Both the position numbers and the translations under genes were made by a program. Shown here in pieces: positions 20,289 to 36,919 of a stretch of 64,000 nt of DNA. The stretch spans positions 297,110 through 361,109 of the forward strand of contig NZ_MKUD01000010.1 of the NCBI RefSeq assembly GCF_001898575.1, given 5' to 3'. The first letter of the stretch is position 1. Every line of letters starts with the position of its first letter. This DNA comes from Spirosoma sp. 48-14 (GTDB lineage Bacteria; Bacteroidota; Bacteroidia; Cytophagales; Spirosomataceae). The notes under the pieces are model-generated. The model was not told the origin of the DNA and did no database searches. It saw nothing but the letters and a program-made list of their open reading frames with translations.

Positions 20289-20489
20289 ATGAACAAACGT
20301 TTTACGTCCGTTTTTACAATACTTTTAGTAGCTGCAAATGGGTTTGCGCAAGTGAAAAATGGTGGAGGAGTCGGGAAGGATACCGGTAAAGAACATTGGT
20401 CGGGTGTCGATTTATACTCAATCCTGATCGGCATAGCGATTGGCTTGATTATTGGCTATTTTCTGGGTAAACGGTCGTCAAAGTCGTAG
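20289..20489 (+). CDS. small membrane protein (signal-like N-terminus, C-terminal TM helix, basic tail)
   Basis: 66 aa: MNKRFTSVFTILLVAANGFAQ...LYSILIGIAIGLIIGYFLGKRSSKS. Confidence 0.6.
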   Translation: MNKRFTSVFTILLVAANGFAQVKNGGGVGKDTGKEHWSGVDLYSILIGIAIGLIIGYFLGKRSSKS

Positions 20490-22835: not shown

Positions 22836-22931
22836 CGAGTAAGTTAAGGTAGGAGGATTGTCTGATTAGTCGTTCTGTCTGGTAATCAATGTGCAACGAA
22901 TATATATATTTGTTAGCCAACTCATATTTCT

Positions 22932-24920
22932 ATGAAGCCTCTTTTCCTGCTCATTGGCTTGTCAATTAGTTCGTGTCCAGCGCTTGCCCAGATAAACCTG
23001 GCCGATAGTCTACAAAACCTGTTGGCCAGGCCCATACCCGATACCAGTAAAGTGTTGGCTCTTGATCGGTTAAGTCGGGCCTGGATGTATGCAAAGCCGT
23101 TTGAAGCCATGCAATGTGCCAGAAAGGGCTTACAGATAGCACAACGTATAGGATATGCCCGAGGGGAGGCCCGTATTCAGAACCGGATTGGTACTATTTT
23201 TCGGCTTACCGGTAATTTCGATCAGGCACTAACTGCTCATCTGACGTCTATAAACATTGCAGAAGCCAATCAGGATAAGGATGCACTGGCTCGAACGTAT
23301 AACAATCTCGGTAACCTTTACATCGAGCAGAACAACTGGACGCAGGCAATTCGCTATTTGCAAAAAGCACTTGCACTGGCTGAAGAGTTGAAAGACAGTG
23401 ATTTAAAGCAAATTGTGCTGACTAACCTGGGGTATGATTACATTTCGCAGAGCCGTTTGGACTCTGCGCTGAAGTATACAACCATAGCGTATCAGGAAGC
23501 CGTAAACCTCAAAACGAGCGATCGACAGGCCGAACTGATGAATCTGGGAAATGTGTATGGCCAGTTAGGTAAATACAAAGAGGCCCTGCAATATTTCCGA
23601 TTCAGTGTCGAAAACGGAAAAACGTCAAAAAATGCCCGTGTATTAAGCCAGACCTATTATGAAATGGCCGATGTCTTTAACAAAATGGGCCAGAAGGACT
23701 CGACTATTTTCTATGCTAACCAATCGTTGACAGTCGCACAGCGGAGCGCATTGCAGCTTAATATCGTCAAAGCCAGTTCATTACTGACCGATATATACGA
23801 GTCAACGGATCCGCGACAGGCAATCGCTTATTTAAAAATTGCTACCGCTGCCAAAGACAGTCTGGTTAACACGGAAAAAATTAAAAACTTTCAGAACATC
23901 GAGTTTAATGAAAAAATGAGGCACGAGGATGAGCAGCGGCTGGAAGAAAAATATCGGACCCGGATTACCATTTACCTGCTCGTAGGGGCCATTGGAACTT
24001 TCATCGCTATTGCGTTTATACTCTACCGTAACAACCGAATCAAGCAAAAAGCCAATGTGATCCTTAAAAAGCAACGGGACGAAATCAGTGTGCAACGGCA
24101 AAAAGCAGAGTTGGCGCTGACCGAGTTGAAAGCTACACAGAATCAACTCATTCAGCGCGAGAAACTGGCCAGCTTAGGCGAACTGACAGCAGGTATAGCC
24201 CATGAAATTCAGAATCCGCTGAATTTTGTTACTAATTTCTCTGAGGTGAGTACAGAGCTTATTGATGAGTTGGGCCAAGGGCCGTTTCAGCAACTCAATG
24301 AAGTCGATAAGCAATACGTAGACGAAATTATAGGTGATTTACGGGTGAACCTCGAAAAAATCAATTACCATGGAAAGCGAGCCGATGCCATTGTTCGGGG
24401 GATGCTGGAACATTCCCGAACGTCGACGGGCGAGAAAGCACCTATTCAGCTGAATAAACTAACCGAAGAACACCTGAATCTGGCTTTTCAGGGGTATAGG
24501 AGCAAAGTCAAAGAGTTTACCTGTCAGCTCGAAAGGGATTTTGGCGATACTGTAGGGGGCATTACGATCGTTGCTCAGGATGTAGGTCGTGTACTATTGA
24601 ACTTGTTTAGCAATGCATTCTATGCCATGAATCAAAAGCGTACCCTTTCTACTGCCGAATACCAACCCGTATTATGGGTGAGTACTCGACGGCAAAATGG
24701 GTACGTTGAAATCCGGGTGAAGGACAATGGCGCGGGTATTCCAGAGGGGATAAAAGCGAAAATCTTTCATCCTTTTTTTACGTCCAAGCCTACAGGAGAA
24801 GGAACCGGACTGGGTTTGAGCCTAAGTTTCGATATAATTACCAAAGGGCATAGCGGTGAACTAACCGTTGATAGCCGGGAGGGAGAAGGGACGGAGTTTA
24901 TCATCAGGCTTCCCGGTTAG
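22932..24920 (+). CDS. TPR-repeat sensor histidine kinase
   Basis: Signal peptide, TPR repeats, one TM, GIAHEIQNPLNF H-box, N-box, DNGAGI, FFTSK, GTGLGLS. Confidence 0.93.
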   Translation: MKPLFLLIGLSISSCPALAQINLADSLQNLLARPIPDTSKVLALDRLSRAWMYAKPFEAMQCARKGLQIAQRIGYARGEARIQNRIGTIFRLTGNFDQALTAHLTSINIAEANQDKDALARTYNNLGNLYIEQNNWTQAIRYLQKALALAEELKDSDLKQIVLTNLGYDYISQSRLDSALKYTTIAYQEAVNLKTSDRQAELMNLGNVYGQLGKYKEALQYFRFSVENGKTSKNARVLSQTYYEMADVFNKMGQKDSTIFYANQSLTVAQRSALQLNIVKASSLLTDIYESTDPRQAIAYLKIATAAKDSLVNTEKIKNFQNIEFNEKMRHEDEQRLEEKYRTRITIYLLVGAIGTFIAIAFILYRNNRIKQKANVILKKQRDEISVQRQKAELALTELKATQNQLIQREKLASLGELTAGIAHEIQNPLNFVTNFSEVSTELIDELGQGPFQQLNEVDKQYVDEIIGDLRVNLEKINYHGKRADAIVRGMLEHSRTSTGEKAPIQLNKLTEEHLNLAFQGYRSKVKEFTCQLERDFGDTVGGITIVAQDVGRVLLNLFSNAFYAMNQKRTLSTAEYQPVLWVSTRRQNGYVEIRVKDNGAGIPEGIKAKIFHPFFTSKPTGEGTGLGLSLSFDIITKGHSGELTVDSREGEGTEFIIRLPG

Positions 24921-24933
24921 ATGGCCACATCAC

Positions 24934-27321
24934 TTAAAACACGACCCGATAGCTAAGAATAGGGATCAGACCACTGCCATAGCTGATTTTAAGTGTACCA
25001 CTGGCTGGGTCATAATAGCGTCCGTAAATGTTCTGTCGGTTTACAGCATTCTGTATGTCGAGTGAAAGGGTGCGTGTCGAATGGGGGCGGTTCTTCTTCC
25101 AGCTTAGCCGAAGGTCGGGCCGAAAATAAGCGGGTAGTTGTTCGGTAAAGGCCTGATTGTCGAAGTAAACCGTTTCGCCAAGCCGTTTCGATTCTGTCAG
25201 ATCGATAGGGGTGTCGCGGTAGCCGCCGTAGTAGCTTAGTTTTAGATTCAGCCCAAAGACATGGGAGCCTGATACCCATTCCTTTCCTGCCAGCAGGCTT
25301 TGGGCAAAACGACCATTCCAGCGTGTGCTGCGCCATACACCATCCGAACCCTGGTATTCCGAGTTATACAGCGATGACGATAGCAGGAAATAATAGCTGT
25401 TGCCGGAGGCTGCTTTAAGTAGAAATTGCTCCAGTGTCAGCTCCAGGCCATAGTTTCGTCCGAGGCCGGTGTTGGTCAGTAGTTGGTCCGTAAAGCCATC
25501 GAATCGGTTGATAATAGCGAATGCATTTTTTTCGGCAGCACTGACCGGAATGTTGACTAGATGCTGGTAGTACGTTTCCAGTTTCAGTCGTAGTGGTGAG
25601 CCGGTATTCCAACTGTTCAGCCGTCGGTCATATGCCAGCACGTACTGATGTGAGCGGGTAAAGCCCAATGCCCGGTTGGAAGCTCCGTTCCCATTTTCCG
25701 ATGGGTCGACTGGACGCATAAAATAAGTGGCTGGGTTCTGAATCTGGCTGTGCAGGCCGTAGCCCAGGCTAACAGATTGATCAGGCGAAAAGGCCCAGCG
25801 GATCGAACCCCGTGGTTCCAGCGCCGAAGAGCCGTTCAGGGCCAACCGGAGATAATGCATGCCAACATTGACAGTGAGTTGTTCCGAAATCCGGTAGTTC
25901 CACTGACCAAACGCCTGTAACGTCTGTGTCTGATCATTGACCTGCACCCGTGTCAGTAATTGGCGTTGTTCGGCTTCCCAGGATTTTTGGTACAGGTTAT
26001 ACAGCAGCTGGGTACCGATCAGCCCAGTCCGAAACGTGTGTTGAGCGTTGAGTTTATAGGTCAGCGTTGACGAGAGAATCCGCTTTTGAATGGTGTAGGC
26101 GGCATCGTTTCGTTCCGAAGCGGCATAGTCGTTGGCTGGTTCCAGAAGTGAGTTTTGGAAACTGTTTTTGTAGCCAGACACCAGGAAAACGGTTTTTAGC
26201 AAGGCCTTTCGCCCGATGGGTAGGGTATGCGTAACCCCGGCTGCCCCTGTATTGGAGCGGAAATCTTCGTTATATCGGTCGTAATCGTTCGCCCACTTTG
26301 ATGAATCGGCAGGGGCGTTGATTTTGCTGCTACTCAATCCACCAAAACCGAACAGGGTAAACGTTCCAGCCGTTCGGGTTGGCAGGTAGACATTGAACGA
26401 CAAATCCTGAAACACCCTGTCGCCAGTACCGATGTTAACGCCCAGTTTGGATAGCAAACCGAGAGTGGAATAGCGATAATTGACCAGAAATGAACCGTTG
26501 TACCCTTTCGCTATGGGGCCTTCGGCAGCCAGATCAATGCCCAGCAGTCCGGCTTGCAGCGTGTATTCGCGTTTGGTGCTATTTCCCCGGCGTAGGCGCA
26601 GATCAAATACGCCCGAAAGCGCATTGCCGTATTCGGCCGGAAAAGCGCCGGTCAGAAAATCCGAATTGGCCAGTAACTGGGCGCTGAGGATGGAAATGCC
26701 TCCACCAGCCGTACCCAGGTTGGAAAAATGATTCGGGTTTGGTATCTCGACACCTTCCATGCGCCATAGTAGCCCGTTTGGTGTATTGCCCCGGATAATG
26801 ATGTAATTACCGCCATCGTCGGCACCGACCACACCCGCGTAGGCTGTTGCCATACGGGCCGGGTCATTGACAGCAGCTGCAAATTTCTGCGTTTCTTCCA
26901 CCGAAAACGTTCGGGCCGATACGGTAGCCATTTCGTTGATCGGTTTGTCTTTTTCAGTGGTTGGTTTGACCGTTATTTCACCCAGTTGACTAACCGCTTC
27001 TTCGAGGGAAATACTCAGAACCAGTTCTTTCCCGGCGTCGACGACAATGTTTTGGAGGGTCGCCACCTTGTAGCCAACAACACTGATTTGCAGGCTCTGA
27101 CGACCGACCGGAACCTGTGTAAGCTGAAACTGACCTGTGGCATCGGTACTGGTTCCTTTAATGGGCGACGAATTGAGGATAATCACCGAAGCGCCGGGTA
27201 GAGGTGTTTGTAAACTTTGATCCACGACCGTACCCCGGATGGTCTGTGTTAATGATTGAGCCTGTAGAGAAAGCGAAAGCAGAAAAACGGCTAAAAACGT
27301 GAATGGTGAGCGGAGTTGCAT
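24934..27321 (-). CDS. TonB-dependent receptor with N-terminal CarboxypepD_reg-like domain (no STN domain)
   Basis: Signal peptide, IRGTVVD...LPGASV, plug motif IIRGN...EGVEIPNPNHF, AEYGNALSGVFDL, C-terminal SYRVVF. Confidence 0.92.
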   Translation of the reverse strand: MQLRSPFTFLAVFLLSLSLQAQSLTQTIRGTVVDQSLQTPLPGASVIILNSSPIKGTSTDATGQFQLTQVPVGRQSLQISVVGYKVATLQNIVVDAGKELVLSISLEEAVSQLGEITVKPTTEKDKPINEMATVSARTFSVEETQKFAAAVNDPARMATAYAGVVGADDGGNYIIIRGNTPNGLLWRMEGVEIPNPNHFSNLGTAGGGISILSAQLLANSDFLTGAFPAEYGNALSGVFDLRLRRGNSTKREYTLQAGLLGIDLAAEGPIAKGYNGSFLVNYRYSTLGLLSKLGVNIGTGDRVFQDLSFNVYLPTRTAGTFTLFGFGGLSSSKINAPADSSKWANDYDRYNEDFRSNTGAAGVTHTLPIGRKALLKTVFLVSGYKNSFQNSLLEPANDYAASERNDAAYTIQKRILSSTLTYKLNAQHTFRTGLIGTQLLYNLYQKSWEAEQRQLLTRVQVNDQTQTLQAFGQWNYRISEQLTVNVGMHYLRLALNGSSALEPRGSIRWAFSPDQSVSLGYGLHSQIQNPATYFMRPVDPSENGNGASNRALGFTRSHQYVLAYDRRLNSWNTGSPLRLKLETYYQHLVNIPVSAAEKNAFAIINRFDGFTDQLLTNTGLGRNYGLELTLEQFLLKAASGNSYYFLLSSSLYNSEYQGSDGVWRSTRWNGRFAQSLLAGKEWVSGSHVFGLNLKLSYYGGYRDTPIDLTESKRLGETVYFDNQAFTEQLPAYFRPDLRLSWKKNRPHSTRTLSLDIQNAVNRQNIYGRYYDPASGTLKISYGSGLIPILSYRVVF

Positions 27322-27351
27322 GATGGAACAGAAAACGATGATTCGCTTTCC

Positions 27352-27378
27352 TGACAGCCGACGTCAACAAGACCCCTA
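27352..27378 (-). promoter_or_regulatory. putative ECF-sigma promoter, copy 1 (TonB receptor)
   Basis: Minus strand TAGGGGT-cttgttgacgtcgg-CTGTCA, 30 nt before ATG 27321. Confidence 0.8.
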
Positions 27379-27597
27379 TGACCACTCGTCAAAAAGTTTC
27401 AGATTGCAGGCTATCGCCAACCGGGTCAGTTATGTAAAAACGAACTTCAGTGGAGATAACAGCTAGTAAGCAATCGGTAGACGTTGTATTAATCCTAGCA
27501 GAATAGATTAGTTTTTCGTGTAAATTAAATGGGATGGAAAACTGACACTAAACTTGGCATGAAAATAGTGATTAGGGACTTCTAAAATGCCGCGTTT

Positions 27598-28599
27598 ATG
27601 AAACGGTTACCCACCGCCTACTTGCTCTTTTTTGCTCTTGTGATGCCGATCTGGCTGGTTTACATGGTTACTCAAAACGGTTTTTCGTTTTATAACGACC
27701 ACTGGGCCGCGCCCATAACCATGTTTTTTGGATCATTTGTCGCTGGAGCGACATCGGAAGGGGGAGGAGCAGTAGCCTTCCCGGTGTTTACGCTGCTGCT
27801 CAAACTACCCCCGCCCGTAGCCCGCAACTTTTCATTTGCCATACAGAGTATTGGGATGACATCTGCCAGTCTGTTGATTATCAGCCTGAAAATTCCGGTC
27901 GACTGGCGGGCTATTCGTACGGTAGCCATTGGCGGTATTCCAGGGCTGTTGTTTGGCGCTTTCTTCATTGTACCGCTGATTAGCGGCCAAATGACAAAGA
28001 TTTTCTTTGTGTCGCTATGGCTAAGCTTTGCGTTTGCCCTGTATCTGGCGAACCGCAAAACAGATCGGGTTACGACCAGGGGATTAGGCCCGTTGAAGGC
28101 AGTCGATCTAGCCCGCATTCTGGTATTTGCGTTCATTGGCGGTATCATCACGGCCATTTTTGGTGATGGGATCAATATTTTCACCTTTTGCCTGTTTACC
28201 CTCTACTATTCAACCAGTGAGAAAATCGCTACCCCTACATCCATCATAATCATGACCATCCATACCATCATTGGCTTTTTGCTGCATGTGTTCGTATTGC
28301 AGGATTTTCAGCCGATGACTTTTCAGTATTGGATGTGTGCGATTCCGGTAGCGATTCTGATGGCACCGCTGGGTGCCTACATTATTAATTTTCTGACGCG
28401 GGAAGCCATCGCTAAATTCCTGTACATCACCACTGTGGTTCAATATATCGGTGCATTGATCGCCCTGCGTCCTCCAACGGTTGTGGTGTTGATCAGCTTC
28501 GGTACGGTTGTAGGTGGGTTTTTGTTTTTCTGGTGGCTATCAACGCTTCGGTCTGAGCAGTCGGCTAAACCCTCGTCTTATGCCTCGTTGAATTCCTAA
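27598..28599 (+). CDS. TauE/SafE (TSUP) family membrane transporter
   Basis: GSFVAGATSEGGGAVAFPVFT...NFSFAIQSIGMTSA; second repeat GGIITAIFGDG; about 9 TM helices. Confidence 0.85.
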   Translation: MKRLPTAYLLFFALVMPIWLVYMVTQNGFSFYNDHWAAPITMFFGSFVAGATSEGGGAVAFPVFTLLLKLPPPVARNFSFAIQSIGMTSASLLIISLKIPVDWRAIRTVAIGGIPGLLFGAFFIVPLISGQMTKIFFVSLWLSFAFALYLANRKTDRVTTRGLGPLKAVDLARILVFAFIGGIITAIFGDGINIFTFCLFTLYYSTSEKIATPTSIIIMTIHTIIGFLLHVFVLQDFQPMTFQYWMCAIPVAILMAPLGAYIINFLTREAIAKFLYITTVVQYIGALIALRPPTVVVLISFGTVVGGFLFFWWLSTLRSEQSAKPSSYASLNS

Positions 28600-28610
28600 A
28601 CGCCCTCATT

Positions 28611-29123
28611 ATGCAAACCGCTATTCGTTGGGCGTTATACATTCTGGGGATTGAAATTCTGTTTCTAGTCGCTTTAGCGGTGCACCATTTCTCATTGGTT
28701 CCCCCGCTGGCGGCTAGTTGTATGCTGTTGGCAGCCAATCCCAAGGGCGTTTTTGCACAGCCTCGTACGGTTTTGGTTGCTTATATACTGGTGGGACATC
28801 TGGGTTTATTCCACTACGTATTTCTGGGAAATAATCTATTCGGATTGATGGCCATGACAATACTGGCAGTTAGCCTGATGGCTGCCGTTTCATCGATTCA
28901 TCCACCTGCCATAGCGCTGTTATTTCTACTGGCGAAAGCCGCCCATCCGTTTCAGGAGTATTTGTTCATGGTTTTGTTTGTAGTGGCGATGGTCGGGTTT
29001 CACTATGCCGCTCAGTGGTGGCTAAGTCAACTATATCCATCTGTTCAAGCCAATCCAAGGGTCATAACGGAATCGAAGCCGACTGCTTATTCAACCTACC
29101 TGGCCACCGCCGAAAATCAATGA
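28611..29123 (+). CDS. HPP-family membrane protein
   Basis: VPPLAAS...AQPR...SIHPPAIA motifs, 4-5 TM helices. Confidence 0.8.
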   Translation: MQTAIRWALYILGIEILFLVALAVHHFSLVPPLAASCMLLAANPKGVFAQPRTVLVAYILVGHLGLFHYVFLGNNLFGLMAMTILAVSLMAAVSSIHPPAIALLFLLAKAAHPFQEYLFMVLFVVAMVGFHYAAQWWLSQLYPSVQANPRVITESKPTAYSTYLATAENQ

Positions 29124-29267
29124 TCAGCGGCAACCGTACTGGACTACGCTTATCCTGCCCCAGGCTACATATCCTGCTGGTGTTACCCTTTTTGTCAGTG
29201 TGATGGAGGGGTTATGACGGAAACTATGTCTATCGTGCTTTTGCAGAAAAATTATTTTTACATGGCG

Positions 29268-29294
29268 TAGGGGTCGACCGGCTACTAACTGTCA
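29268..29294 (+). promoter_or_regulatory. putative ECF-sigma promoter, copy 2 (autoregulatory)
   Basis: TAGGGGT-cgaccggctactaa-CTGTCA, 30 nt before ATG 29325. Confidence 0.82.
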
Positions 29295-29324
29295 TAGGGA
29301 GGAACAACCGGATGTTTGCCGAAA

Positions 29325-30038
29325 ATGATAGCTTTGCAGTCTCCTGTCATTTATTATACTACACCAGTGCCACCAACCGAACAGGATGTCATTACGGCTA
29401 TCCGGGCGGGTAGCGAACGCGACTTTGAAGCTGTTTTCAGGCAGTATTATGCGTCGCTATGCCGGTATGCCCGTCAGTTACTCCCCGATCCTGACGAAGC
29501 AGAAGAGGAAGTACAGGCTATGTTCCTGGCTATTTGGGAAAAACGCCAAGGACTGCTTATTAGTGTATCGCTCAAGTCGTACCTGTATCGATCGGTTCAT
29601 AATCGTTGCCTGAACCGACTCAAGCACGCATCCGTTCGCGATGAGCACCGGGACTATATCCAGCATATTGGGGAAGAGACGGCTGAATCGCCTGCTCAGC
29701 GGGTAATTGGTGAGGAATTGGCTCACCAGATTCAACGGGCAATTCAGAAATTACCCGAACAGTGCCGACTCGTGTTTACGCTAAGTCGGTACGAAGAGCT
29801 TCGGTACGGGGAAATTGCAGAGCAATTAGGGATATCAATTAAAACCGTTGAGAATCAGATTGGCAAAGCCCTACGTATCTTACGGGCAGAATTGAGTGAG
29901 TATTTACCCGTTGTTCTGGCGCTTGGAATGAATAATGGACAGTGGATGCTGAATCCTGGTAGCGAATTGAGCGAAGCGGATATAGTATCTATACTAACCA
30001 TGTTTCATTCTTCATTGTCAATTCTTCATTTTATCTAA
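29325..30038 (+). CDS. ECF RNA polymerase sigma-70 factor (Bacteroidota FecI-like) with extended C-tail
   Basis: FEAVFRQYY...AEEEVQAMFLAIWEKR...YLYRSVHNRCLN; region 4 LPEQCRLVFTLSRYEELRYGEIAEQLGISIKTVENQI. Start at ATG 29325 preferred over TTG 29316. Confidence 0.95.
   Translation: MIALQSPVIYYTTPVPPTEQDVITAIRAGSERDFEAVFRQYYASLCRYARQLLPDPDEAEEEVQAMFLAIWEKRQGLLISVSLKSYLYRSVHNRCLNRLKHASVRDEHRDYIQHIGEETAESPAQRVIGEELAHQIQRAIQKLPEQCRLVFTLSRYEELRYGEIAEQLGISIKTVENQIGKALRILRAELSEYLPVVLALGMNNGQWMLNPGSELSEADIVSILTMFHSSLSILHFI
29926..30035. repeat. AATGAA(T/G)-type heptamer inverted repeat read in frame within the sigma gene 3' end
   Basis: Left arm gaatgaataatggacagtgga, right arm tcattcttcattgtcaattcttcatt; pairs with G-U wobbles. 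Confidence 0.65.
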
Positions 30039-30041
30039 GCC

Positions 30042-31136
30042 ATGGCCGATCAACATCCTATTGACGATGCCCTATTGGGCAAGTTTCTGGCCGGTGAAAC
30101 GGATCCGGCTGAATCGGCGCGGGTACGGCAATGGCTTTTGAGTCGCAATGCAGGTATATCCGAACCTACGCACGACGATTTTGCCAAGTTTGAACGCATC
30201 TGGAATGCGGCTAAGCAAGGGCAGCGTGCATCGAAGAAAGGCAAAACATCGACAGACCTCGAGCAACCCGATGTGGATACCGACGCGGCCTGGAAATCGG
30301 TTCAACAGCGTATGAGGAGCATTGATGGGCGAGCCGAAAATGGGGCGGCTATCAAGCCGCTGCCCAGTCAGGTAACAGAGCCGGATAGCCTTTGGCGGCA
30401 GACTGGCTACCGGGTGGCGGCAGTGTTGGCATTGGTGGTGAGCCTGGGCTGGCTGGTTTATCAGTTTCGGTACATGGGTCACGACAATCCGGCTATTCAT
30501 ACGGTTACGCTGGTCACGGGCGACCGACAACTTCGAAAAACCCTGCCCGATGGTTCACGCATTGTGCTGAATCGACACTCCACACTGACTTATCCGGCCG
30601 CTTTTGCTGACGAACGACGCGATGTGACCCTGAATGGTGAAGCGTTTTTTGATGTAACCCCCGACCCAAATCGACCGTTCCGTATCCAGGCCCGGCCAAC
30701 CGTTGTGCAGGTGCTGGGTACATCGTTTACTGTTCGGGCTTATGATAACAATGTCAGTGTAGCCGTTCAAACGGGTAAAGTGCGGTTTTCGAGCGGCCGC
30801 AAAGCCGTCTTGCTGACAAAAGATCAACAGGCCACGTTTGACGAGCAGACCGATACCATTCGTCGGGCAGCGCAGCTAGCGCCTAACGCCTTTGCTTACA
30901 AGACTGGCTTGCTGGTGTTTGACAATGAGCCATTGGCCAGTGTAATACAGACCATTAACCAGTTCTATAATTCGGATGTGCAACTAGCTAATGCCCGGCT
31001 GGATAATTGTCGGTTGAAAACCCGTTTCGATAAAATGTCGCTGGATGAAGTGGTGGCTGTAACGGCCGAAACCCTTGGTTTACAGGTTCGCCACGAAGGG
31101 AAATCAATAATTTTAGACGGTGCCGGATGCCGATGA
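30042..31136 (+). CDS. FecR-family anti-sigma factor
   Basis: LLGKFLAGE...VRQWL, AAW, single TM, LPDGSRIVLN, LNGEAFFDV, VQVLGTSF, LVFDNEPL motifs. Confidence 0.94.
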   Translation: MADQHPIDDALLGKFLAGETDPAESARVRQWLLSRNAGISEPTHDDFAKFERIWNAAKQGQRASKKGKTSTDLEQPDVDTDAAWKSVQQRMRSIDGRAENGAAIKPLPSQVTEPDSLWRQTGYRVAAVLALVVSLGWLVYQFRYMGHDNPAIHTVTLVTGDRQLRKTLPDGSRIVLNRHSTLTYPAAFADERRDVTLNGEAFFDVTPDPNRPFRIQARPTVVQVLGTSFTVRAYDNNVSVAVQTGKVRFSSGRKAVLLTKDQQATFDEQTDTIRRAAQLAPNAFAYKTGLLVFDNEPLASVIQTINQFYNSDVQLANARLDNCRLKTRFDKMSLDEVVAVTAETLGLQVRHEGKSIILDGAGCR

Positions 31137-31137
31137 A

Positions 31138-31163
31138 TAGGGGTAAGCGACCAGATGGCTGTC
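31138..31163 (+). promoter_or_regulatory. putative ECF-sigma promoter, copy 3 (STN protein)
   Basis: TAGGGGT-aagcgaccagatgg-CTGTC(T), directly after the fecR stop and about 28 nt before ATG 31193. Confidence 0.75.
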
Positions 31164-31192
31164 TTGTCGTAAAACCACTGTTAGTAAATCCA

Positions 31193-33034
31193 ATGCGTTA
31201 TTTTCTCCTTTGCTTCTTTATTAGCCTCCGCCTGTCGGCTCAGTCGATACCTCCACTGGATCGGGTCATTTCGGTGGATATTCGCAATGCAACGCTCGAC
31301 AATGCTCTTCGTCAGATCAGCCGGGCTGGCCGGTTTGAGTTCTCGTACGACCCCACCCGTATCGATGGAACTACAACGATCACGCTGCGATTAACGAACA
31401 CACCCGTTCGGGAAGTGCTGAGCCGGGTATTTGTGAACCGGGTTGCGTTTAAATCCCGCGGGAACCACGTCATTCTGGTCCGTGCCGATCCGCCTGAGTC
31501 GACCCCGAAGAGTTTTCTGCTGGATGGCTATATTCTGGATGAGCAAACCGGCGAACGGATTGCCAAAGCCAGTATTTTCGAAAAAACCACGCTGGCATCT
31601 ACGGTCAGCAATCCCTTTGGGTATTATAAACTACAGCTACCGACGAGTCTGGCCAATGCGCGGCTGGACGTTCGTAAACAGGATTACCTGGGCGAAACGG
31701 TGCTGATCCGATCCCGGACTTCGCACGCGGTTAACATCCGCATGACCCCTTTGCCTCCTACTACCTCATCGTCGATCCAAACCTTACCAATTCGTGTGAT
31801 TGAGGATACGGTGCGCTCCGTTGAGCCACCCTTAGCTTCCGTAGCGGTCGAAGCACCTGCGCCAATGGTCGATTCAACGGCCCGCCAACCGCAGTCCGTT
31901 GTTGATAAAGGGTGGTCTGGAATTTCGAAGTTTTTTGTTTCGGCGCAACAGGCCATTCACGACATAAACCTGAGCCGTGATACGCTTTACCGGGACTGGC
32001 AGGTGTCGTTTGTTCCGTTTTTTGGCACCAACGGGCGTTTGAGCGGACGTATCAGCAACCGTTTTTCGGTCAACATGCTCATGGGCTATTCGTTTGGGGT
32101 TCGGGCGTTTGAGGTTGGAGGCTTGATGAACCTGGTTCGAACCGATGTCGATGGATTTCAGACCGCTGGTTTAGCCAATATCGTTGGTGGTCATGTCGCT
32201 GGGGTTCAGGCAGGTGGGCTTATCAACTATACGAATCACTATGTAAAAGGTGCCCAACTCGGTGGTCTGGTCAATACAGCCGGACGTTCGGTAACGGGAG
32301 CGCAGGTGGCCGGGTTGATCAACTATGCCAATCAGGAAGTTCAGGGTGCTCAGATTGCCGGATTGATTAATGTGGCTGGACGTTCGGTTAATGGTGTGCA
32401 ACTGGCTGGCATACTCAACGTAGCCCGTGGCGATGTGCGTGGTGCACAGATCAGTGGTATTGTGAACGTAGCTCGCCGGGTGACAAACGGCCCTCAGATT
32501 GGGTTGATCAATCTGGCCGATACAGCAGGCAGCGTACCTGTTGGTCTCCTGAGTTTTGTCCGAAAAGGAGGCTACAAACGTGTCGAACTAGCGGCTAATG
32601 AGGTCAATCTGTTGAATGTAACCTTACGAACGGGTGTGCAGCGATTATACAATATCCTGACCGCCGGGCACAGTTTCGATCGGATAGGTAGCCCCCGACT
32701 TAGTGCCGGTTATGGTTTAGGAACGGCCTTCCGACTGTCGAAAGCCACCTTATTCAACCTCGAACTCATCGATCAGCATTTGTTCTATTTCGACGGAACG
32801 TATCCACGCGGCTGGAACAACCAGATTCGCCTGAATACCCTGATTGAAGCCCGGTTGAGTAACCATATCGCACTAGCATTCGGGCCGTCGGCCAACTGGT
32901 ATTTCAGTACCGACGATCGGCCAATCCCGCTGTTGCAACCCGAAATCCTATTGGTTTCTAACCGGGCCGATGCATACAGTAATGCGCGTCACTGGGGGTG
33001 GCTTGGCCTTCAGGCTGGTTTACGGTTCTTTTAA
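31193..33034 (+). CDS. outer-membrane protein: STN + CarboxypepD_reg-like domain + about 8 x 16-aa GxQxxGxxN repeats + C-terminal beta-barrel-like domain
   Basis: ISVDIRNATLDNALRQIS...FEFSY (STN); LDGYILDEQTGERIAKASI; repeats such as GAQIAGLINVAGRSV; amphipathic strands ending GLQAGLRFF. Confidence 0.82.
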   Translation: MRYFLLCFFISLRLSAQSIPPLDRVISVDIRNATLDNALRQISRAGRFEFSYDPTRIDGTTTITLRLTNTPVREVLSRVFVNRVAFKSRGNHVILVRADPPESTPKSFLLDGYILDEQTGERIAKASIFEKTTLASTVSNPFGYYKLQLPTSLANARLDVRKQDYLGETVLIRSRTSHAVNIRMTPLPPTTSSSIQTLPIRVIEDTVRSVEPPLASVAVEAPAPMVDSTARQPQSVVDKGWSGISKFFVSAQQAIHDINLSRDTLYRDWQVSFVPFFGTNGRLSGRISNRFSVNMLMGYSFGVRAFEVGGLMNLVRTDVDGFQTAGLANIVGGHVAGVQAGGLINYTNHYVKGAQLGGLVNTAGRSVTGAQVAGLINYANQEVQGAQIAGLINVAGRSVNGVQLAGILNVARGDVRGAQISGIVNVARRVTNGPQIGLINLADTAGSVPVGLLSFVRKGGYKRVELAANEVNLLNVTLRTGVQRLYNILTAGHSFDRIGSPRLSAGYGLGTAFRLSKATLFNLELIDQHLFYFDGTYPRGWNNQIRLNTLIEARLSNHIALAFGPSANWYFSTDDRPIPLLQPEILLVSNRADAYSNARHWGWLGLQAGLRFF

Positions 33035-33119
33035 CTGCACTATAGGGGAAGAAACAATCCCGCCAGTAGCCATAATAGGAGAGGAGCTTGGTGTGAGGCA
33101 AATTTTTTTTGTCGGCGCG

Positions 33120-33146
33120 TAGGGGTAGAGGTATGTACGGCTGTCA
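33120..33146 (+). promoter_or_regulatory. putative ECF-sigma promoter, copy 4 (GIN lipoprotein)
   Basis: TAGGGGT-agaggtatgtacgg-CTGTCA, 65 nt before ATG 33212. Confidence 0.8.
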
Positions 33147-33211
33147 TGATGTCAAATGAGCTATGAATACAACCTGAATAGCTCCGAAATCTGTAAAACG
33201 ACAAGTAGATT

Positions 33212-33928
33212 ATGACAAGCACAAAATTCCTGGGCATTTCGCTCGTTGCCATCGCGCTTACTTTATCCGGCTGCTCCTTAATTCGGGAGGATGTAGGGCC
33301 TTACCAGATGGCTCAGCAAAGCTATGCACTCACCAATTTCGACCGACTGGATATGGGAAGTGCTTTTGTTATTACGGTTCAGCAGGGAACCTCTTATAGC
33401 ATTTCGGTGGAAGGCGACCGACGAAATCTGGATGACCTGGAGGTGTATACGCGAAATGGTACACTCAAAGCGCAGTACCGCGTAGCCCGGAACCGCCAGT
33501 ACGCTACCACGTTCCGAATTACGATGCCCAGTCTGCGCGGAGTAGATTTTTCGGGTGCGGTTCGATCAACGGTAACGGGTTTTACGAATCTGGATGGTTT
33601 CGACGTTACGTTGTCGGGCGCTTCTGAAGGCCAGTTTGATATACAGGCGGCCCGACCAACGATCAATCTATCCGGCGCTTCGGTATTGCGGATGACTGGC
33701 AAAGGGGCGTTCCTGACAGCCGATTTGTCCGGTGCTTCGAGCTTACAGGCGTTCGACTATCTCGTCGATAATGCGGGTCTGGAACTGTCGGGAGCCAGTA
33801 AAGCGAACGTTAGTGTAAACAGCAGTCTGGTAGTCGAGGCCAGTGGGGCCAGCGCCGTTCGTTATCGCGGCAAACCTGCTGTTGCTCAACGAGTAAGTGG
33901 AGCCAGTACGGTACAGAACGAATTGTAG
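33212..33928 (+). CDS. head GIN domain (DUF2807) lipoprotein
   Basis: Lipobox LSGC; repeated SGAS/SGAV units; ends VRYRGKP...VSGASTV. Confidence 0.88.
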   Translation: MTSTKFLGISLVAIALTLSGCSLIREDVGPYQMAQQSYALTNFDRLDMGSAFVITVQQGTSYSISVEGDRRNLDDLEVYTRNGTLKAQYRVARNRQYATTFRITMPSLRGVDFSGAVRSTVTGFTNLDGFDVTLSGASEGQFDIQAARPTINLSGASVLRMTGKGAFLTADLSGASSLQAFDYLVDNAGLELSGASKANVSVNSSLVVEASGASAVRYRGKPAVAQRVSGASTVQNEL

Positions 33929-33939
33929 TTTTATACGTC

Positions 33940-34010
33940 ACTCTTATCTCTAAAAATCCCGAAGGGGACTCAGATCCTGAGTCCCCTTCGGGATTTTTAG
34001 AGATAAGAGT
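33940..34010. repeat. perfect 34-bp inverted repeat with 3-nt loop between convergent genes (bidirectional terminator / REPIN-like)
   Basis: actcttatctctaaaaatcccgaaggggactcag-atc-ctgagtccccttcgggatttttagagataagagt. Confidence 0.9.
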
Positions 34011-34016
34011 ATGTTA

Positions 34017-35048
34017 TTATGGCTTCGGACTAGCAGCCGCTGTACTATCCGCTTTTTGTTTCGCTTCGGCTTTGGCTTTCTTCTTGAAGAAGCCACGCAA
34101 CAGGAAGTTACTCTGTGCAGCTTTCAGGTCTTCATTCAGTAGCTCCGTTCCTTTACTTAAGTTACGAAGCGTGACCTGTAGATTGGTTGCTGTTTCCTTG
34201 TCGGTCAGCAGGATACCAAGCGGGCTGTTGGTATTGTTCAGCTTATCCGATGCCCGGTTCAGGTTGATCGATGTTTGCCGTAAAGTAGCCACGCTTTGAT
34301 CGGCAGCAGTTACAGTCGATTCGAATCGGGTGGCGGCCCGGCTCAGGCGTCGAAATACCGTTGTATCGGTTACTAATTCGTTCGCCAGCGTTCCTTTCGT
34401 ATTCAGTTTGGCGGCAAACTGCGCCACTGAACCCGTCACCCGAACGGTATTGTCGGACGCTTTTTCCAGATTGACCATAGCCCGTTTGAAATTGTCGGCA
34501 ACGATCGAGTCGGTCAGAACTGCCCCTACGGTGCCTTTCCCACGTCTTAAATTGCCAACCAGTTCTTTAAAGTCATTGGTCACTTTCAGGAGGTTATTGT
34601 TGTTTTCCTGTAAAGTTGCCATGATTTGATCCGAACTTAATGCCTCGGTGGTTTTCAGTCGGTCACCATCTTCAACTTCGGGCTGGCTTGTGGTCCCGCC
34701 GGCAATCACAACGATTTTATTCCCGATCAGGCCATCGGAACTAATGGAGGCTGAAGCATCTTTCCGAATGAATTGCTTGGAGCTTTCCTCAATATTCATG
34801 TCAACTTCTACCTGTGAGTTGCTCACGAAGCTAATGCGCTTAACCGTACCGATTTTAACACCGGAAAACCAGACGTTGTTGCCGTTCTTCAAGCCACCAA
34901 CGTCTTTAAAGAGCGCAATAAGGCGAACAGTACTGGTGAAGCGCTTTTGCTGGCCACCCAGTACGAATATTCCCGCGATCAGGATAATAATGCCCAGTAG
35001 GACGAATATGCCTACGACCACGGAGCGTTTTGTCGATTCAGTACTCAT
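34017..35048 (-). CDS. mlaD: MlaD/MCE-family protein
   Basis: VVVGIFVLLG TM, FKDVGGLKNGNNVWFSGVKIGTV, ISSDGLIGNKIV, helical tail. Start at ATG 35048. Confidence 0.92.
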   Translation of the reverse strand: MSTESTKRSVVVGIFVLLGIIILIAGIFVLGGQQKRFTSTVRLIALFKDVGGLKNGNNVWFSGVKIGTVKRISFVSNSQVEVDMNIEESSKQFIRKDASASISSDGLIGNKIVVIAGGTTSQPEVEDGDRLKTTEALSSDQIMATLQENNNNLLKVTNDFKELVGNLRRGKGTVGAVLTDSIVADNFKRAMVNLEKASDNTVRVTGSVAQFAAKLNTKGTLANELVTDTTVFRRLSRAATRFESTVTAADQSVATLRQTSINLNRASDKLNNTNSPLGILLTDKETATNLQVTLRNLSKGTELLNEDLKAAQSNFLLRGFFKKKAKAEAKQKADSTAAASPKP

Positions 35049-35144
35049 TTCTAGTATAAGTGGAGTCAGTGAAAGTGGTGTAGTATATGCAGTTAGTGTA
35101 ATCAGTGAAGTCTGTAAAATGTTTAAATTCTTCACTCTTTACCC

Positions 35145-35903
35145 CTAATCCACAAATTTGTAATCATAAAATTGCTGTATACGTTCGTCTTTGTCGGCAA
35201 ATACCTCATCGAAGGTGCCCACCCGCGCAAATTTGCCATCCAGCAGCATGGCAATTCGGTCGCCGGTAGTTTTAGCGCAGGTCAGATCGTGGGTGATGAT
35301 AATCGAAGTGGCGCCGAGCCGCTCCTGCACGTCGTTGATCAGATTGTTGATTTCCACACTGGTAATGGGGTCCAGCCCAGCCGTTGGCTCATCATACAGC
35401 ATAATCTCCGGCTTCAGAATCAGCGTACGGGCAATACCAATCCGTTTCCGCTGCCCACCCGACAGTTCGGCAGGCATCTGGTCGATGGTTTGTGCCAGAC
35501 CAACATCGTCCAGCGCTTTTTTGACGGCCTTATCGATTTCGCCACGACTCAGGTTGCGAACGTTTCGCACCAGCGGGAATTCCAGATTTTCGCGGATGCT
35601 CATGCTGTCATAAAGGGCACTGCTCTGGAACGAAAACCCTACCTTCTGGCGAAACTCATCCAATTCTTTACCACCTAGTGTTTCCACATCCTCACCCAGA
35701 ATAATTACTTTCCCGGCATCCGGTTTGAGCAGACCGACCATGATTTTGATCAGAACCGATTTTCCTGTTCCCGACCGGCCCAGCACCACCACGTTTTCCC
35801 CTTTATTCACCTCTAAATCAACCCCACGCAGCACGTGCAAACTGCCAAAGGACTTTTTCAATCCTTTGATTATAATAACGGGTTCATTTTTCTTTTCGCT
35901 CAT
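35145..35903 (-). CDS. mlaF: MlaF-like ABC ATPase
   Basis: GRSGTGKS, FQSSALYDSMS, LSGGQRKR, LYDEPTAGLDP, ITHD. Confidence 0.93.
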   Translation of the reverse strand: MSEKKNEPVIIIKGLKKSFGSLHVLRGVDLEVNKGENVVVLGRSGTGKSVLIKIMVGLLKPDAGKVIILGEDVETLGGKELDEFRQKVGFSFQSSALYDSMSIRENLEFPLVRNVRNLSRGEIDKAVKKALDDVGLAQTIDQMPAELSGGQRKRIGIARTLILKPEIMLYDEPTAGLDPITSVEINNLINDVQERLGATSIIITHDLTCAKTTGDRIAMLLDGKFARVGTFDEVFADKDERIQQFYDYKFVD

Positions 35904-35908
35904 AGTTT

Positions 35909-35990
35909 AATGATTGAATGATTGAATGATAGAATGATTGAATAGCTGTCGCCCATTATTAATTCAATCATTCAATCATTCAATCATTCT
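35909..35990. repeat. tandem octamer (AATGATTG)x4 / (TTCAATCA)x3 inverted repeat within the mla operon
   Basis: aatgattg aatgattg aatgatag aatgattg ... ttcaatca ttcaatca ttcaatca. Confidence 0.88.
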
Positions 35991-35997
35991 AAATTGT

Positions 35998-36810
35998 TTA
36001 ACTGCCCCGAATGGCGGATACGATTTGTAGCGAGAGTAATTCTTCAATAAAAACCAGGAACATGGCGGTTACTACCGACGAGTTGGCCGCTTTACCGACT
36101 CCTTCGGTTCCTTTTGAGGAGTGATATCCTTTATAGCAACCAACCATGCCGATGGTGAAGCCAAACACAATGGATTTGATGACCGACGAAAAAATATCGA
36201 GGTAGGTGATGGCCCCAAAAACCTCCTGAATATAGGACGTAAAACTCGTTTGCTCGTTGGCATTTACATTTAGGAATGCCCCGATCAACGCCACAAAAAT
36301 GGTGTACATCGTTAGTAACGGAATGGTGAACGAGGTAGCCAGTACGCGGCTCACGACCAGAAACTTAAATGGATTCGTTCCCGACACTTCCATCGCGTCG
36401 ATCTGTTCGGTAACGTTCATGGAACCGATTTCGGCACCGATGCTGGACCCAACTTTACCAGCGGCAATCAAAGCGGTTACCAGTGGGCCCAGGGCCCGGA
36501 CAACGGCAATGGCTATGAGCGAAGGGAGCCAGGAGGTAGCGCCAAACTCCGACAGCGATGGTCGCGACTGATTGGTGAACACCATGCCGGTTATAAACCC
36601 GGTGGTTGAAATCAGCAGGAGCGATCGATAACCAACTTCGTAGCATTGGCGGATGATCTCCTTAAATTCGTAGGGGGGGACAAACACTTCCCGAAAGAAG
36701 CGCCCAATGAAAGCGGCCACATCGCCCAAATTCAAAAAAAACTGGTCTAACTTTCGTGTAGTGACAGGCCGGCCAGTAGCCTGTTGGGATTTATTGGCGT
36801 CCGATTGCAT
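35998..36810 (-). CDS. mlaE: MlaE-family ABC permease
   Basis: GKVGSSIGAEIGSMNVTEQIDAMEVSG, GVGKAANSSVV. Confidence 0.94.
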   Translation of the reverse strand: MQSDANKSQQATGRPVTTRKLDQFFLNLGDVAAFIGRFFREVFVPPYEFKEIIRQCYEVGYRSLLLISTTGFITGMVFTNQSRPSLSEFGATSWLPSLIAIAVVRALGPLVTALIAAGKVGSSIGAEIGSMNVTEQIDAMEVSGTNPFKFLVVSRVLATSFTIPLLTMYTIFVALIGAFLNVNANEQTSFTSYIQEVFGAITYLDIFSSVIKSIVFGFTIGMVGCYKGYHSSKGTEGVGKAANSSVVTAMFLVFIEELLSLQIVSAIRGS

Positions 36811-36919
36811 TCAACAGGTGGAAAAGTAGATTAATGCCAAAAACGGGCTTATCAGAAACATAGGATTACGTATACCCATATAACTGATTTGTTGAGCCGT
36901 GGTTTTATTTTGGCAAAAG

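Follow-up and report, generated by a model that had tools for sequence, protein, structure and literature searches.

In a 64,000-nucleotide (nt) stretch of the genome of Spirosoma sp. 48-14 (contig NZ_MKUD01000010.1, positions 297,110 to 361,109; hereinafter referred to as the window), genes for an extracytoplasmic function (ECF) sigma factor, a FecR-type anti-sigma factor and an STN-domain protein were found side by side, and the STN domain is carried by a protein with a predicted β-solenoid and a predicted small outer-membrane barrel. We read the three as one signalling module whose STN partner is an accessory outer-membrane protein and not a TonB-dependent transducer, and give this reading a probability of roughly 0.55. 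Nearly all that is understood of cell-surface signalling comes from TonB-dependent transducers bearing their own STN domain. Proteins in which STN is mounted on a small outer-membrane-anchored β-solenoid form a large, unstudied family of Bacteroidota.

The STN gene lies within an open reading frame (ORF) of 635 codons, whose residue numbers are used below; coordinates of all features are given in Table 1. Translation likely starts at M23, as the first-pass annotation had assumed, because most homologues begin there, a signal peptide ensues and a promoter motif falls within the longer ORF. The type-I signal peptide after M23 reads MRYFLLCFFISLRLSA/QS. Residues 72-119 matched the Pfam STN family (PF07660) with 38.6 bits against a gathering score of 28.4, and in the main AlphaFold2 model, built with 59 homologues (mean predicted local distance difference test score [pLDDT] 89.2, predicted template modelling score 0.77), the STN region folded into five strands and two helices at pLDDT >92. 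The immunoglobulin (Ig)-like domain that follows was assigned to CarbopepD_reg_2 (PF13715, 1e-5, residues 133-204). Its top Foldseek match was the N-terminal extension (NTE) of the SusC protein BT3090 (9hfj, template modelling [TM] score 0.85), which was also recovered by a profile search of PDB sequences (2.4e-6), the NTE being the sole region matched there. The Pro/Thr-rich linker differed in length and sequence across homologues and had a pLDDT <50 over most of residues 215-251, in four short segments; two short helices were modelled between it and the solenoid rungs. When the STN-NTE part was used as query, merely three proteins were returned, which was uninformative on the origin of the extension.

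No match to Plug or TonB_dep_Rec was obtained with Pfam in the 635-codon ORF, and the model contained no 22-strand barrel, which bears out the earlier proposal that the STN domain sits on a protein lacking both. All the elements listed in that proposal (STN, CarboxypepD_reg-like domain, Pro/Thr linker, 16-residue repeats and strand-rich C-terminus) were recovered where it had placed them. The C-terminal 381 residues matched zero Pfam families even at E≤10, and the same held for the barrel alone and for a paralogue without STN.

In the solenoid, each rung consisted of a 7-residue strand and a 4-residue strand (pLDDT 96-98, AlphaFold2). The pattern GxQxxGxxN occurred in seven copies at a spacing of exactly 16 between residues 343 and 439, with four to five degenerate rungs on each flank. 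Across the 59 homologues, 339 of about 400 spacings had the period 16, and the number of rungs differed by whole repeats. The repeat consensus was V-[RK]-G-[VA]-Q-h-A-G-[LIF]-h-N-h-a-G-x-x; Tandem Repeats Finder detected nothing in the DNA, so the repeat is visible at the protein level only. Repeat positions 4, 6, 10 and 12 were hydrophobic, position 2 was charged and positions 14-16 were polar. This periodicity suggests an outward hydrophobic stripe, which would need burial against a partner, another copy or the membrane.

The C-terminal domain was modelled as an eight-stranded barrel (strands 483-491, 496-504, 507-515, 525-536, 541-553, 564-576, 581-594 and 621-634), and hydrophobic and polar residues alternate along these strands as read from the sequence. 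A separate model of residues 255-635 gave the same secondary structure as the full model. Nearly all Foldseek matches of the C-terminal part were outer-membrane barrels; the top ones, at TM 0.5-0.62, were the eight-stranded NspA, OprF-N, OmpX and Opa60 together with designed barrels, none of them at E<1e-3. A count of nine strands was rejected, as it included a short low-confidence strand (607-614) and gave an inverted loop pattern. Residues 595-620 were instead taken as one 26-residue loop because they are poorly conserved and of low confidence, and eight strands with canonical topology therefore result. The structure prediction that had been put forward as a check thus returned both an STN fold and an eight-strand barrel.

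The connections between the barrel strands are 2, 4 and 4 residues long on the solenoid side and 4, 9, 10 and 26 residues long on the opposite side, which is the loop pattern of ordinary outer-membrane proteins with periplasmic termini. On this model the solenoid is almost certainly periplasmic and lies directly beneath the barrel, with only short loops at the surface, since STN can reach FecR_C only in the periplasm and an eight-stranded barrel offers the chain no pore. The protein would therefore be an outer-membrane-anchored periplasmic protein and not an obvious sensor of the outside. The first-pass annotation had left the side of the membrane on which the solenoid lies as a question for structure prediction, and had interpreted the locus as a non-TonB outer-membrane sensor that signals to FecR and switches on a separate uptake receptor and surface adhesin; the STN domain on a non-TonB protein and the shared promoter motif described below stand, while sensing of the exterior is made unlikely by this topology.

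The two proteins encoded upstream have the domains expected of a FecIR pair. The sigma ORF matched Sigma70_r2, Sigma70_r4_2 and Sigma70_ECF in Pfam and scored 179 bits against the TIGR02985 cut-off of 126. The anti-sigma protein matched FecR (PF04773, 4e-19) and FecR_C (PF16344, 2e-11), and is laid out with a cytoplasmic N-terminus, a single transmembrane helix at about residues 123-142 (read from the sequence) and periplasmic FecR and FecR_C domains. The TonB-dependent receptor encoded nearby matched CarboxypepD_reg (1.6e-17) and, weakly, Plug, and had no Pfam match to STN. It comprises an N-terminal NTE/CarboxypepD_reg domain, a TonB-box-like GEITVKP, a plug, a barrel and a terminal F. Its relatives carry the name TonB-dependent receptor, some of them matched PF00593/PF07715, and among the matches listed PF07660 was found in none of 120. 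Pairwise comparison detected no similarity between the NTE of the STN protein and that of the receptor.

A shared putative promoter motif connects these genes. The regions upstream of the sigma, receptor and DUF2807 genes have TAGGGGT-N14-CTGTCA in common, which supports the earlier proposal of a co-regulated set. The relaxed form TAGGGG-N16-TGTC matched four times in the window against 0.12 expected, and all four matches lie 20-65 nt upstream of their transcription units on the correct strand. An autoregulated ECF promoter would account for the fixed spacing of the two blocks, the GTC within the downstream one and the position before the sigma gene, and the four sites are putative sigma-dependent promoters. 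The fourth site precedes the STN gene, which is thus a predicted regulon member with a putative promoter of its own, a point absent from the first-pass annotation.

The motif was also conserved outside the window. With up to three mismatches it was found ahead of sigma genes in 26 of 27 loci, among them members of 31-35% identity, and before the DUF2807 gene in all 17 loci scanned (Spirosoma, Runella, Emticicia) as well as in locus L033. Spirosoma, Fibrisoma and Emticicia keep it at the same place ahead of STN, and receptor orthologues are preceded by it in Spirosoma, Fibrisoma and Hymenobacter. A Runella genome has its receptor orthologue about 2 Mb away from the sigma operon, and the sole motif match in 10.4 kb was in its upstream region. 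In loci L034-36 the STN gene overlaps fecR and has no motif of its own. Envelope-lipid genes in the neighbourhood were considered as regulon members and rejected, since neither the Mla genes (Spirosoma) nor those for fatty-acid desaturase, Psd, CdsA and heptosyltransferase (L003, L034-36) have the motif.

Loci were located in genome contigs with a six-sequence alignment as query. A survey of synteny, proposed earlier as a check, placed fecR directly upstream of the STN gene in all 36 loci with upstream sequence (Spirosoma, Fibrisoma, Runella, Emticicia, Hymenobacter, Paraflavitalea and metagenomic members at 31-35% identity), and a sigma gene preceded fecR wherever the contig extended far enough. 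The closest locus among those found was that of S. panaciterrae (L008), with 78-99% protein identity and identical gene order. Fifteen loci had a receptor orthologue next to the sigma-FecR-STN triad, in one of three arrangements: divergent upstream (Spirosoma), directly downstream (Hymenobacter, Fibrisoma) or downstream behind a paralogue (L005-7). In about 20 loci a DUF2807 gene was the neighbour of the triad, on one side or the other.

The size of the family was estimated in a search space of 1.84 billion representatives clustered at 50% identity. The full-length protein retrieved 335 cluster representatives at E≤1e-3, with the same domain order down to 30% identity over >90% of the length, and the solenoid-barrel part alone retrieved 5319 at E≤1e-3 and 1497 at E≤1e-30. 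Among the best 150 of these roughly 5,300 solenoid-barrel representatives, about 129 were 570-790 amino acids (aa) long and about 20 were 350-510 aa; to judge from the length of the former, most of the 150 carry the STN/NTE extension. In eight of nine inspected short members, a signal peptide was followed directly by the solenoid, which argues that the solenoid-barrel is an autonomous module to which STN, NTE and linker were added. Further, paralogues lacking STN were found in three lineages beside receptor or DUF2807 genes (Table 1), contexts that link the function of this module to those of the DUF2807 lipoprotein and the receptor. One of these clusters (L037) additionally holds a sigma factor, FecR and an STN-bearing copy.

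Table 1. Features of the signalling module in the window, its neighbours and STN-less paralogues in other loci
Feature	Position	Strand	Remarks
TonB-dependent receptor without STN, 795 aa	24934..27321	(-)	Pfam and relatives
Putative promoter motif before receptor gene	27353..27378	(-)	exact TAGGGGT-N14-CTGTC; 30 nt upstream of ATG
TauE/SafE-family and HPP-family membrane-protein genes	27598-29123		between receptor and sigma gene
Putative promoter motif before sigma-fecR operon	29268..29293	(+)	exact match; predicted autoregulation
FecI-like Bacteroidota ECF sigma factor	29316..30038	(+)	TTG 29316 opens ORF; probable start ATG 29325
FecR-type anti-sigma factor	30042..31136	(+)	Pfam FecR and FecR_C
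Putative promoter motif before STN gene	31138..31163	(+)	fits TAGGGG-N16-TGTC; right after fecR stop, ~29 nt before ATG 31193
STN-NTE-linker-solenoid-barrel protein, predicted outer membrane	31193..33034	(+)	613 aa from M23 (probable start); 635-codon ORF opens at 31127
STN domain	31265..31483	(+)	ORF residues 47-119
NTE / CarboxypepD_reg Ig-like domain	31511..31744	(+)	residues 129-206
Disordered Pro/Thr-rich linker, ~45 residues	31745..31891	(+)	residues 207-255
Predicted β-solenoid, ~12 rungs of 16 residues	31985..32560	(+)	~residues 287-478
Predicted C-terminal 8-stranded outer-membrane β-barrel	32573..33031	(+)	residues 483-635; end GLRFF
Putative promoter motif before DUF2807 gene	33120..33145	(+)	exact match; 65 nt upstream
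DUF2807 (GIN / Toastrack β-helix) lipoprotein	33212..33928	(+)	PF10988, 5e-29; lipobox LSGC read from sequence
MlaD/MlaF/MlaE-like phospholipid-transport operon	34017-36810		convergent on DUF2807 gene
STN-less paralogue	L005 10392-11750 (also L006-7)		motif copy before; receptor gene directly downstream on same strand, likely operon
STN-less paralogue	L037 6001-7269		motif copy before; DUF2807 gene directly downstream, likely operon
STN-less paralogue	L039 558-1868		26 nt downstream of DUF2807 gene

These data lead us to suppose, at the probability given at the outset, that the DUF2807 lipoprotein and, in loci that have one, the receptor act together with the solenoid-barrel protein at the outer membrane, and that the STN-tagged protein reports the state of this assembly. 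The eight-stranded barrel would anchor the STN protein in the outer membrane, with the rigid 16-residue-repeat solenoid hanging into the periplasm under it. By analogy with FoxA/FoxR, STN bound to FecR would keep FecR intact and the sigma factor silent; an STN domain that protects an anti-sigma factor has a precedent (PMC11637429). A change in the outer-membrane partner or assembly would expose FecR to proteolysis and free the sigma factor, which would then fire the four TAGGGG-N16-TGTC promoters, namely those of its own operon, the STN gene, the STN-less receptor gene and the DUF2807 lipoprotein gene. The promoter of the STN gene itself would replenish STN and damp the response, a predicted negative feedback. 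The function of a transducer would thus be divided among two or three proteins. We infer the formation of the complex, its trigger and the direction of regulation alike.

Several points weigh against such a divided transducer. The binding of STN to FecR is deduced solely from domain identity and gene adjacency. The solenoid had no match among solved structures, either in Foldseek or in the profile search of PDB sequences, and its fold is an AlphaFold2 prediction; the orientation of solenoid and barrel and the hydrophobic stripe derive from sequence periodicity and not from the model. The structural matches of the predicted barrel agree in kind and are consistent with an outer-membrane barrel, but lack statistical significance (E>1e-3). 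Loci L001 and L034-36 have neither a receptor nor a DUF2807 gene within 7 kb, and the complex may therefore not be universal. To our knowledge, there is no precedent for a TonB receptor that signals via a separate outer-membrane protein. In addition, four putative RNA runs that contain this genome showed a flat, DNA-like depth of about 5-10x over genes and spacers alike. Those four libraries are labelled as RNA of another organism, and the signal resembles background or a carry-over of bacterial DNA.

The chief competing explanation is an autonomous sensor of envelope state, in which the barrel-anchored periplasmic solenoid, with or without the DUF2807/Toastrack protein, would monitor the outer membrane or periplasm, and the receptor would be an output only. 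FecR and the STN protein would then form a two-protein tether across the envelope, functionally like Dma1, and the candidate cues include mislocalised lipid, unassembled outer-membrane proteins or lipoproteins, peptidoglycan and the distance between the membranes. The predicted periplasmic solenoid with its minimal surface loops speaks for this, as do the hydrophobic stripe suggested by repeat positions 4, 6, 10 and 12 and the members of the family that have no receptor nearby. DUF2807 belongs to the Toastrack fold, which has been tied to envelope-stress systems (PMC11237479), and in one locus (L033) PspC and LiaF-TM genes are near; Dma1 is itself a Bacteroidota eight-strand outer-membrane barrel tethered to an anti-sigma factor (PMC10927553). 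Yet a TonB receptor belongs to the predicted regulon across genera, even where it is unlinked, which is a hallmark of nutrient-type cell-surface signalling, and the nearby lipid and lipopolysaccharide (LPS) genes (Mla, fatty-acid desaturase, Psd, CdsA, heptosyltransferase) lack the motif. The stripe, moreover, was read from sequence periodicity and not from coordinates. We regard this alternative as unlikely on balance. A more specific version, which we hold to be somewhat more doubtful still, is that FecR and the STN-solenoid-barrel protein form a two-protein envelope bridge in which the periplasmic, in part hydrophobic solenoid and the DUF2807 lipoprotein read the physical or lipid state of the outer membrane. 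If true, this would be an outer-membrane stress pathway specific to Bacteroidota, found in thousands of lineages and assembled from components of cell-surface signalling, with a function comparable to that of RcsF or sigma-E sensing.

A second alternative is that the STN protein senses nothing and is a feedback damper only, the sigma-induced supply of STN re-stabilising FecR while the signal enters elsewhere, for example through the periplasmic domain of FecR. That the STN gene of many genera stands behind a sigma-type promoter motif of its own would suit such a role, and in Pseudomonas aeruginosa signalling is inhibited, and the anti-sigma factor stabilised, when STN domains are overproduced (PMC11637429). 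It leaves unexplained, however, the large conserved solenoid-barrel part and the STN-less paralogues linked to DUF2807 and the receptor, and it does not fit the loci (L034-36) in which the STN gene overlaps fecR and has no promoter of its own; we consider it improbable. That the protein is a miniature autotransporter-like surface protein, which exports the solenoid as a passenger or adhesin and senses an external cue, is very improbable, since the superficial resemblance to type V secretion of a β-helix N-terminal to a C-terminal barrel and the weak match to the NCBIfam repeat model LA_2272 "surface repeat" (1.5e-4, below its cut-off) are set against a barrel of 8 rather than 12 strands without pore or linker helix, short turns on the solenoid side with longer variable loops opposite, and an STN domain that lies N-terminal to the solenoid and must be periplasmic for FecR_C, so that two passages of the chain through the outer membrane would be needed.

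If the transducer is indeed divided as proposed, a considerable proportion of the many FecR-type systems found in Bacteroidota may be wired unlike the textbook model, and TonB receptors without STN could still fall under FecR control. A large family so far named only by its domains gains a testable role, a predicted regulon and a defined motif. The family would also be a natural system in which to study the STN-FecR contact uncoupled from TonB-driven plug movements. Full-text literature searches returned no paper studying the STN-solenoid-barrel family. In Parabacteroides merdae, NQ542_RS07340, which shares the database name of the family only, and RS07355, a CarboxypepD_reg protein three locus tags away, were both about 4-fold down with Neu5Ac in RNA-seq (PMC12893687 Table 2). 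By name alone, co-regulation of the same module in Bacteroidales is possible.

Several features of the surrounding DNA were recorded. The sigma ORF extends about 45 residues beyond region 4 (29901-30038), giving 240 aa versus 169-213 aa in relatives from other genera, and alignment lengths suggest that this C-terminal extension is common to close Spirosoma relatives. The TauE and HPP pair was seen at this site in no locus but the window and that of S. panaciterrae (L008); elsewhere in Spirosoma, receptor and sigma genes are directly divergent. The pair resembles an insertion into the divergent promoter region and has no motif copy. The position of the Mla operon was kept across most Spirosoma loci and not in other genera, and the operon is probably outside the regulon, as it has no TAGGGG-N16-TGTC. 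Beside the receptor gene (20478-24920), a 785-aa papain-family (Peptidase_C1) protein with DUF4384 and a 662-aa TPR-containing histidine kinase are encoded; no link was seen between the module and the Peptidase_C1/DUF4384 or TPR histidine kinase genes. Rfam, generic promoter and terminator scans added nothing. Among runs X1-X13, the sequence of positions 24800-36900 was also found in several bioreactor and wastewater metagenomes (86-100% of sampled words).

Other loci showed peculiarities of their own. In Spirosoma telluris (L028 6956-9902), fecR was split over two frames and the STN gene over four segments in three frames, and the record annotates a 201-aa STN/NTE fragment (P0381); the breaks are either long-read indel errors or signs of a decaying module. 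In L033 (1783-3686), genes for PspC and LiaF-TM / LiaI-LiaF-like proteins lie about 1.6 kb (two genes) from a divergent DUF2807 gene, a neighbourhood that fits the reported association of Toastrack with Psp/Lia. A conserved protein of about 200 aa is encoded just upstream of the motif and sigma gene in L034 (4764-5351), L035 (4688-5296) and L036 (4694-5302), and had no Pfam match in the copy checked (L034). These three loci lie amid lipid and LPS genes without the motif, namely those for heptosyltransferase, DUF4254, fatty-acid desaturase, Psd and CdsA.

Compared with known systems, the module resembles FecIRA in its FecI-like ECF sigma factor, in a FecR with periplasmic FecR and FecR_C domains, in an STN domain on an outer-membrane partner encoded beside fecR and in a TonB-dependent receptor gene behind a sigma-type promoter motif. 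It differs in that TonB box, plug and 22-strand barrel are all missing from the STN carrier, that the receptor in the regulon has no STN and that the STN gene has a promoter motif of its own. Since the STN carrier is not a TonB-dependent transducer, the defining feature of FecIRA-type signalling is absent. The pairing of STN with NTE also occurs at the N-termini of SusC-type transducers; in those proteins NTE is reported to precede STN (PMC7782687), whereas here STN precedes NTE.

The predicted barrel is like the N-terminal domain of OmpA and like OmpX, NspA, Opa60 and OprF-N in predicted strand number, hydrophobic/polar alternation, short periplasmic turns and a C-terminal aromatic residue. 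In contrast to these small barrels, it had no Pfam or PDB sequence match, and its periplasmic part would be an N-terminal solenoid instead of a C-terminal OmpA-like peptidoglycan-binding domain. From type V autotransporters it differs in having 8 predicted strands versus 12 (or 16) and no linker helix beside the barrel. By its fold DUF2807 has been placed under the name Toastrack, a scaffold on which signalling complexes for envelope stress are built and whose domains in Psp/Lia are predicted to be intracellular and sub-membrane (PMC11237479). The likeness is that a DUF2807 β-helix recurrently neighbours a signalling module with a sigma factor; the signal peptide of the lipoprotein places it outside the cytoplasm, unlike Toastrack in Psp/Lia. 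One DUF2807 protein of Porphyromonas gingivalis has an adhesion phenotype and was reported as an adhesin (PMC10949514); for the lipoprotein of the window, "adhesin" is a Pfam label only.

Closest among known proteins comes VreA, from the PUMA3 system of P. aeruginosa (VreA-VreI-VreR), which has an N-terminal STN domain without a TonB-receptor barrel and is clustered with sigma and anti-sigma genes. VreA is a protein of about 23 kDa, mostly soluble and periplasmic, with a TonB/TolA-like C-terminal domain, and is not induced by VreI (PMC2729926). The protein described here is about 610 aa long, carries NTE, solenoid and a predicted outer-membrane barrel, lacks a TonB/TolA-like C-terminus and is preceded by a sigma-type motif; phylum, regulon and C-terminal part all differ, and beyond STN no homology is apparent, judged by domain content. 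Within Bacteroidota, Dma1 joins an anti-sigma domain, a transmembrane helix, a disordered region and an 8-strand barrel in a single polypeptide (PMC10927553). It pairs with an ECF21-family sigma factor and has no STN, FecR or solenoid, but like the present system it is specific to Bacteroidota and joins an eight-stranded barrel via a long disordered periplasmic segment to ECF anti-sigma function. Where Dma1 is one chain, FecR and the barrel protein are encoded by separate genes in all 36 loci, and would be joined by the presumed contact between STN and FecR_C.

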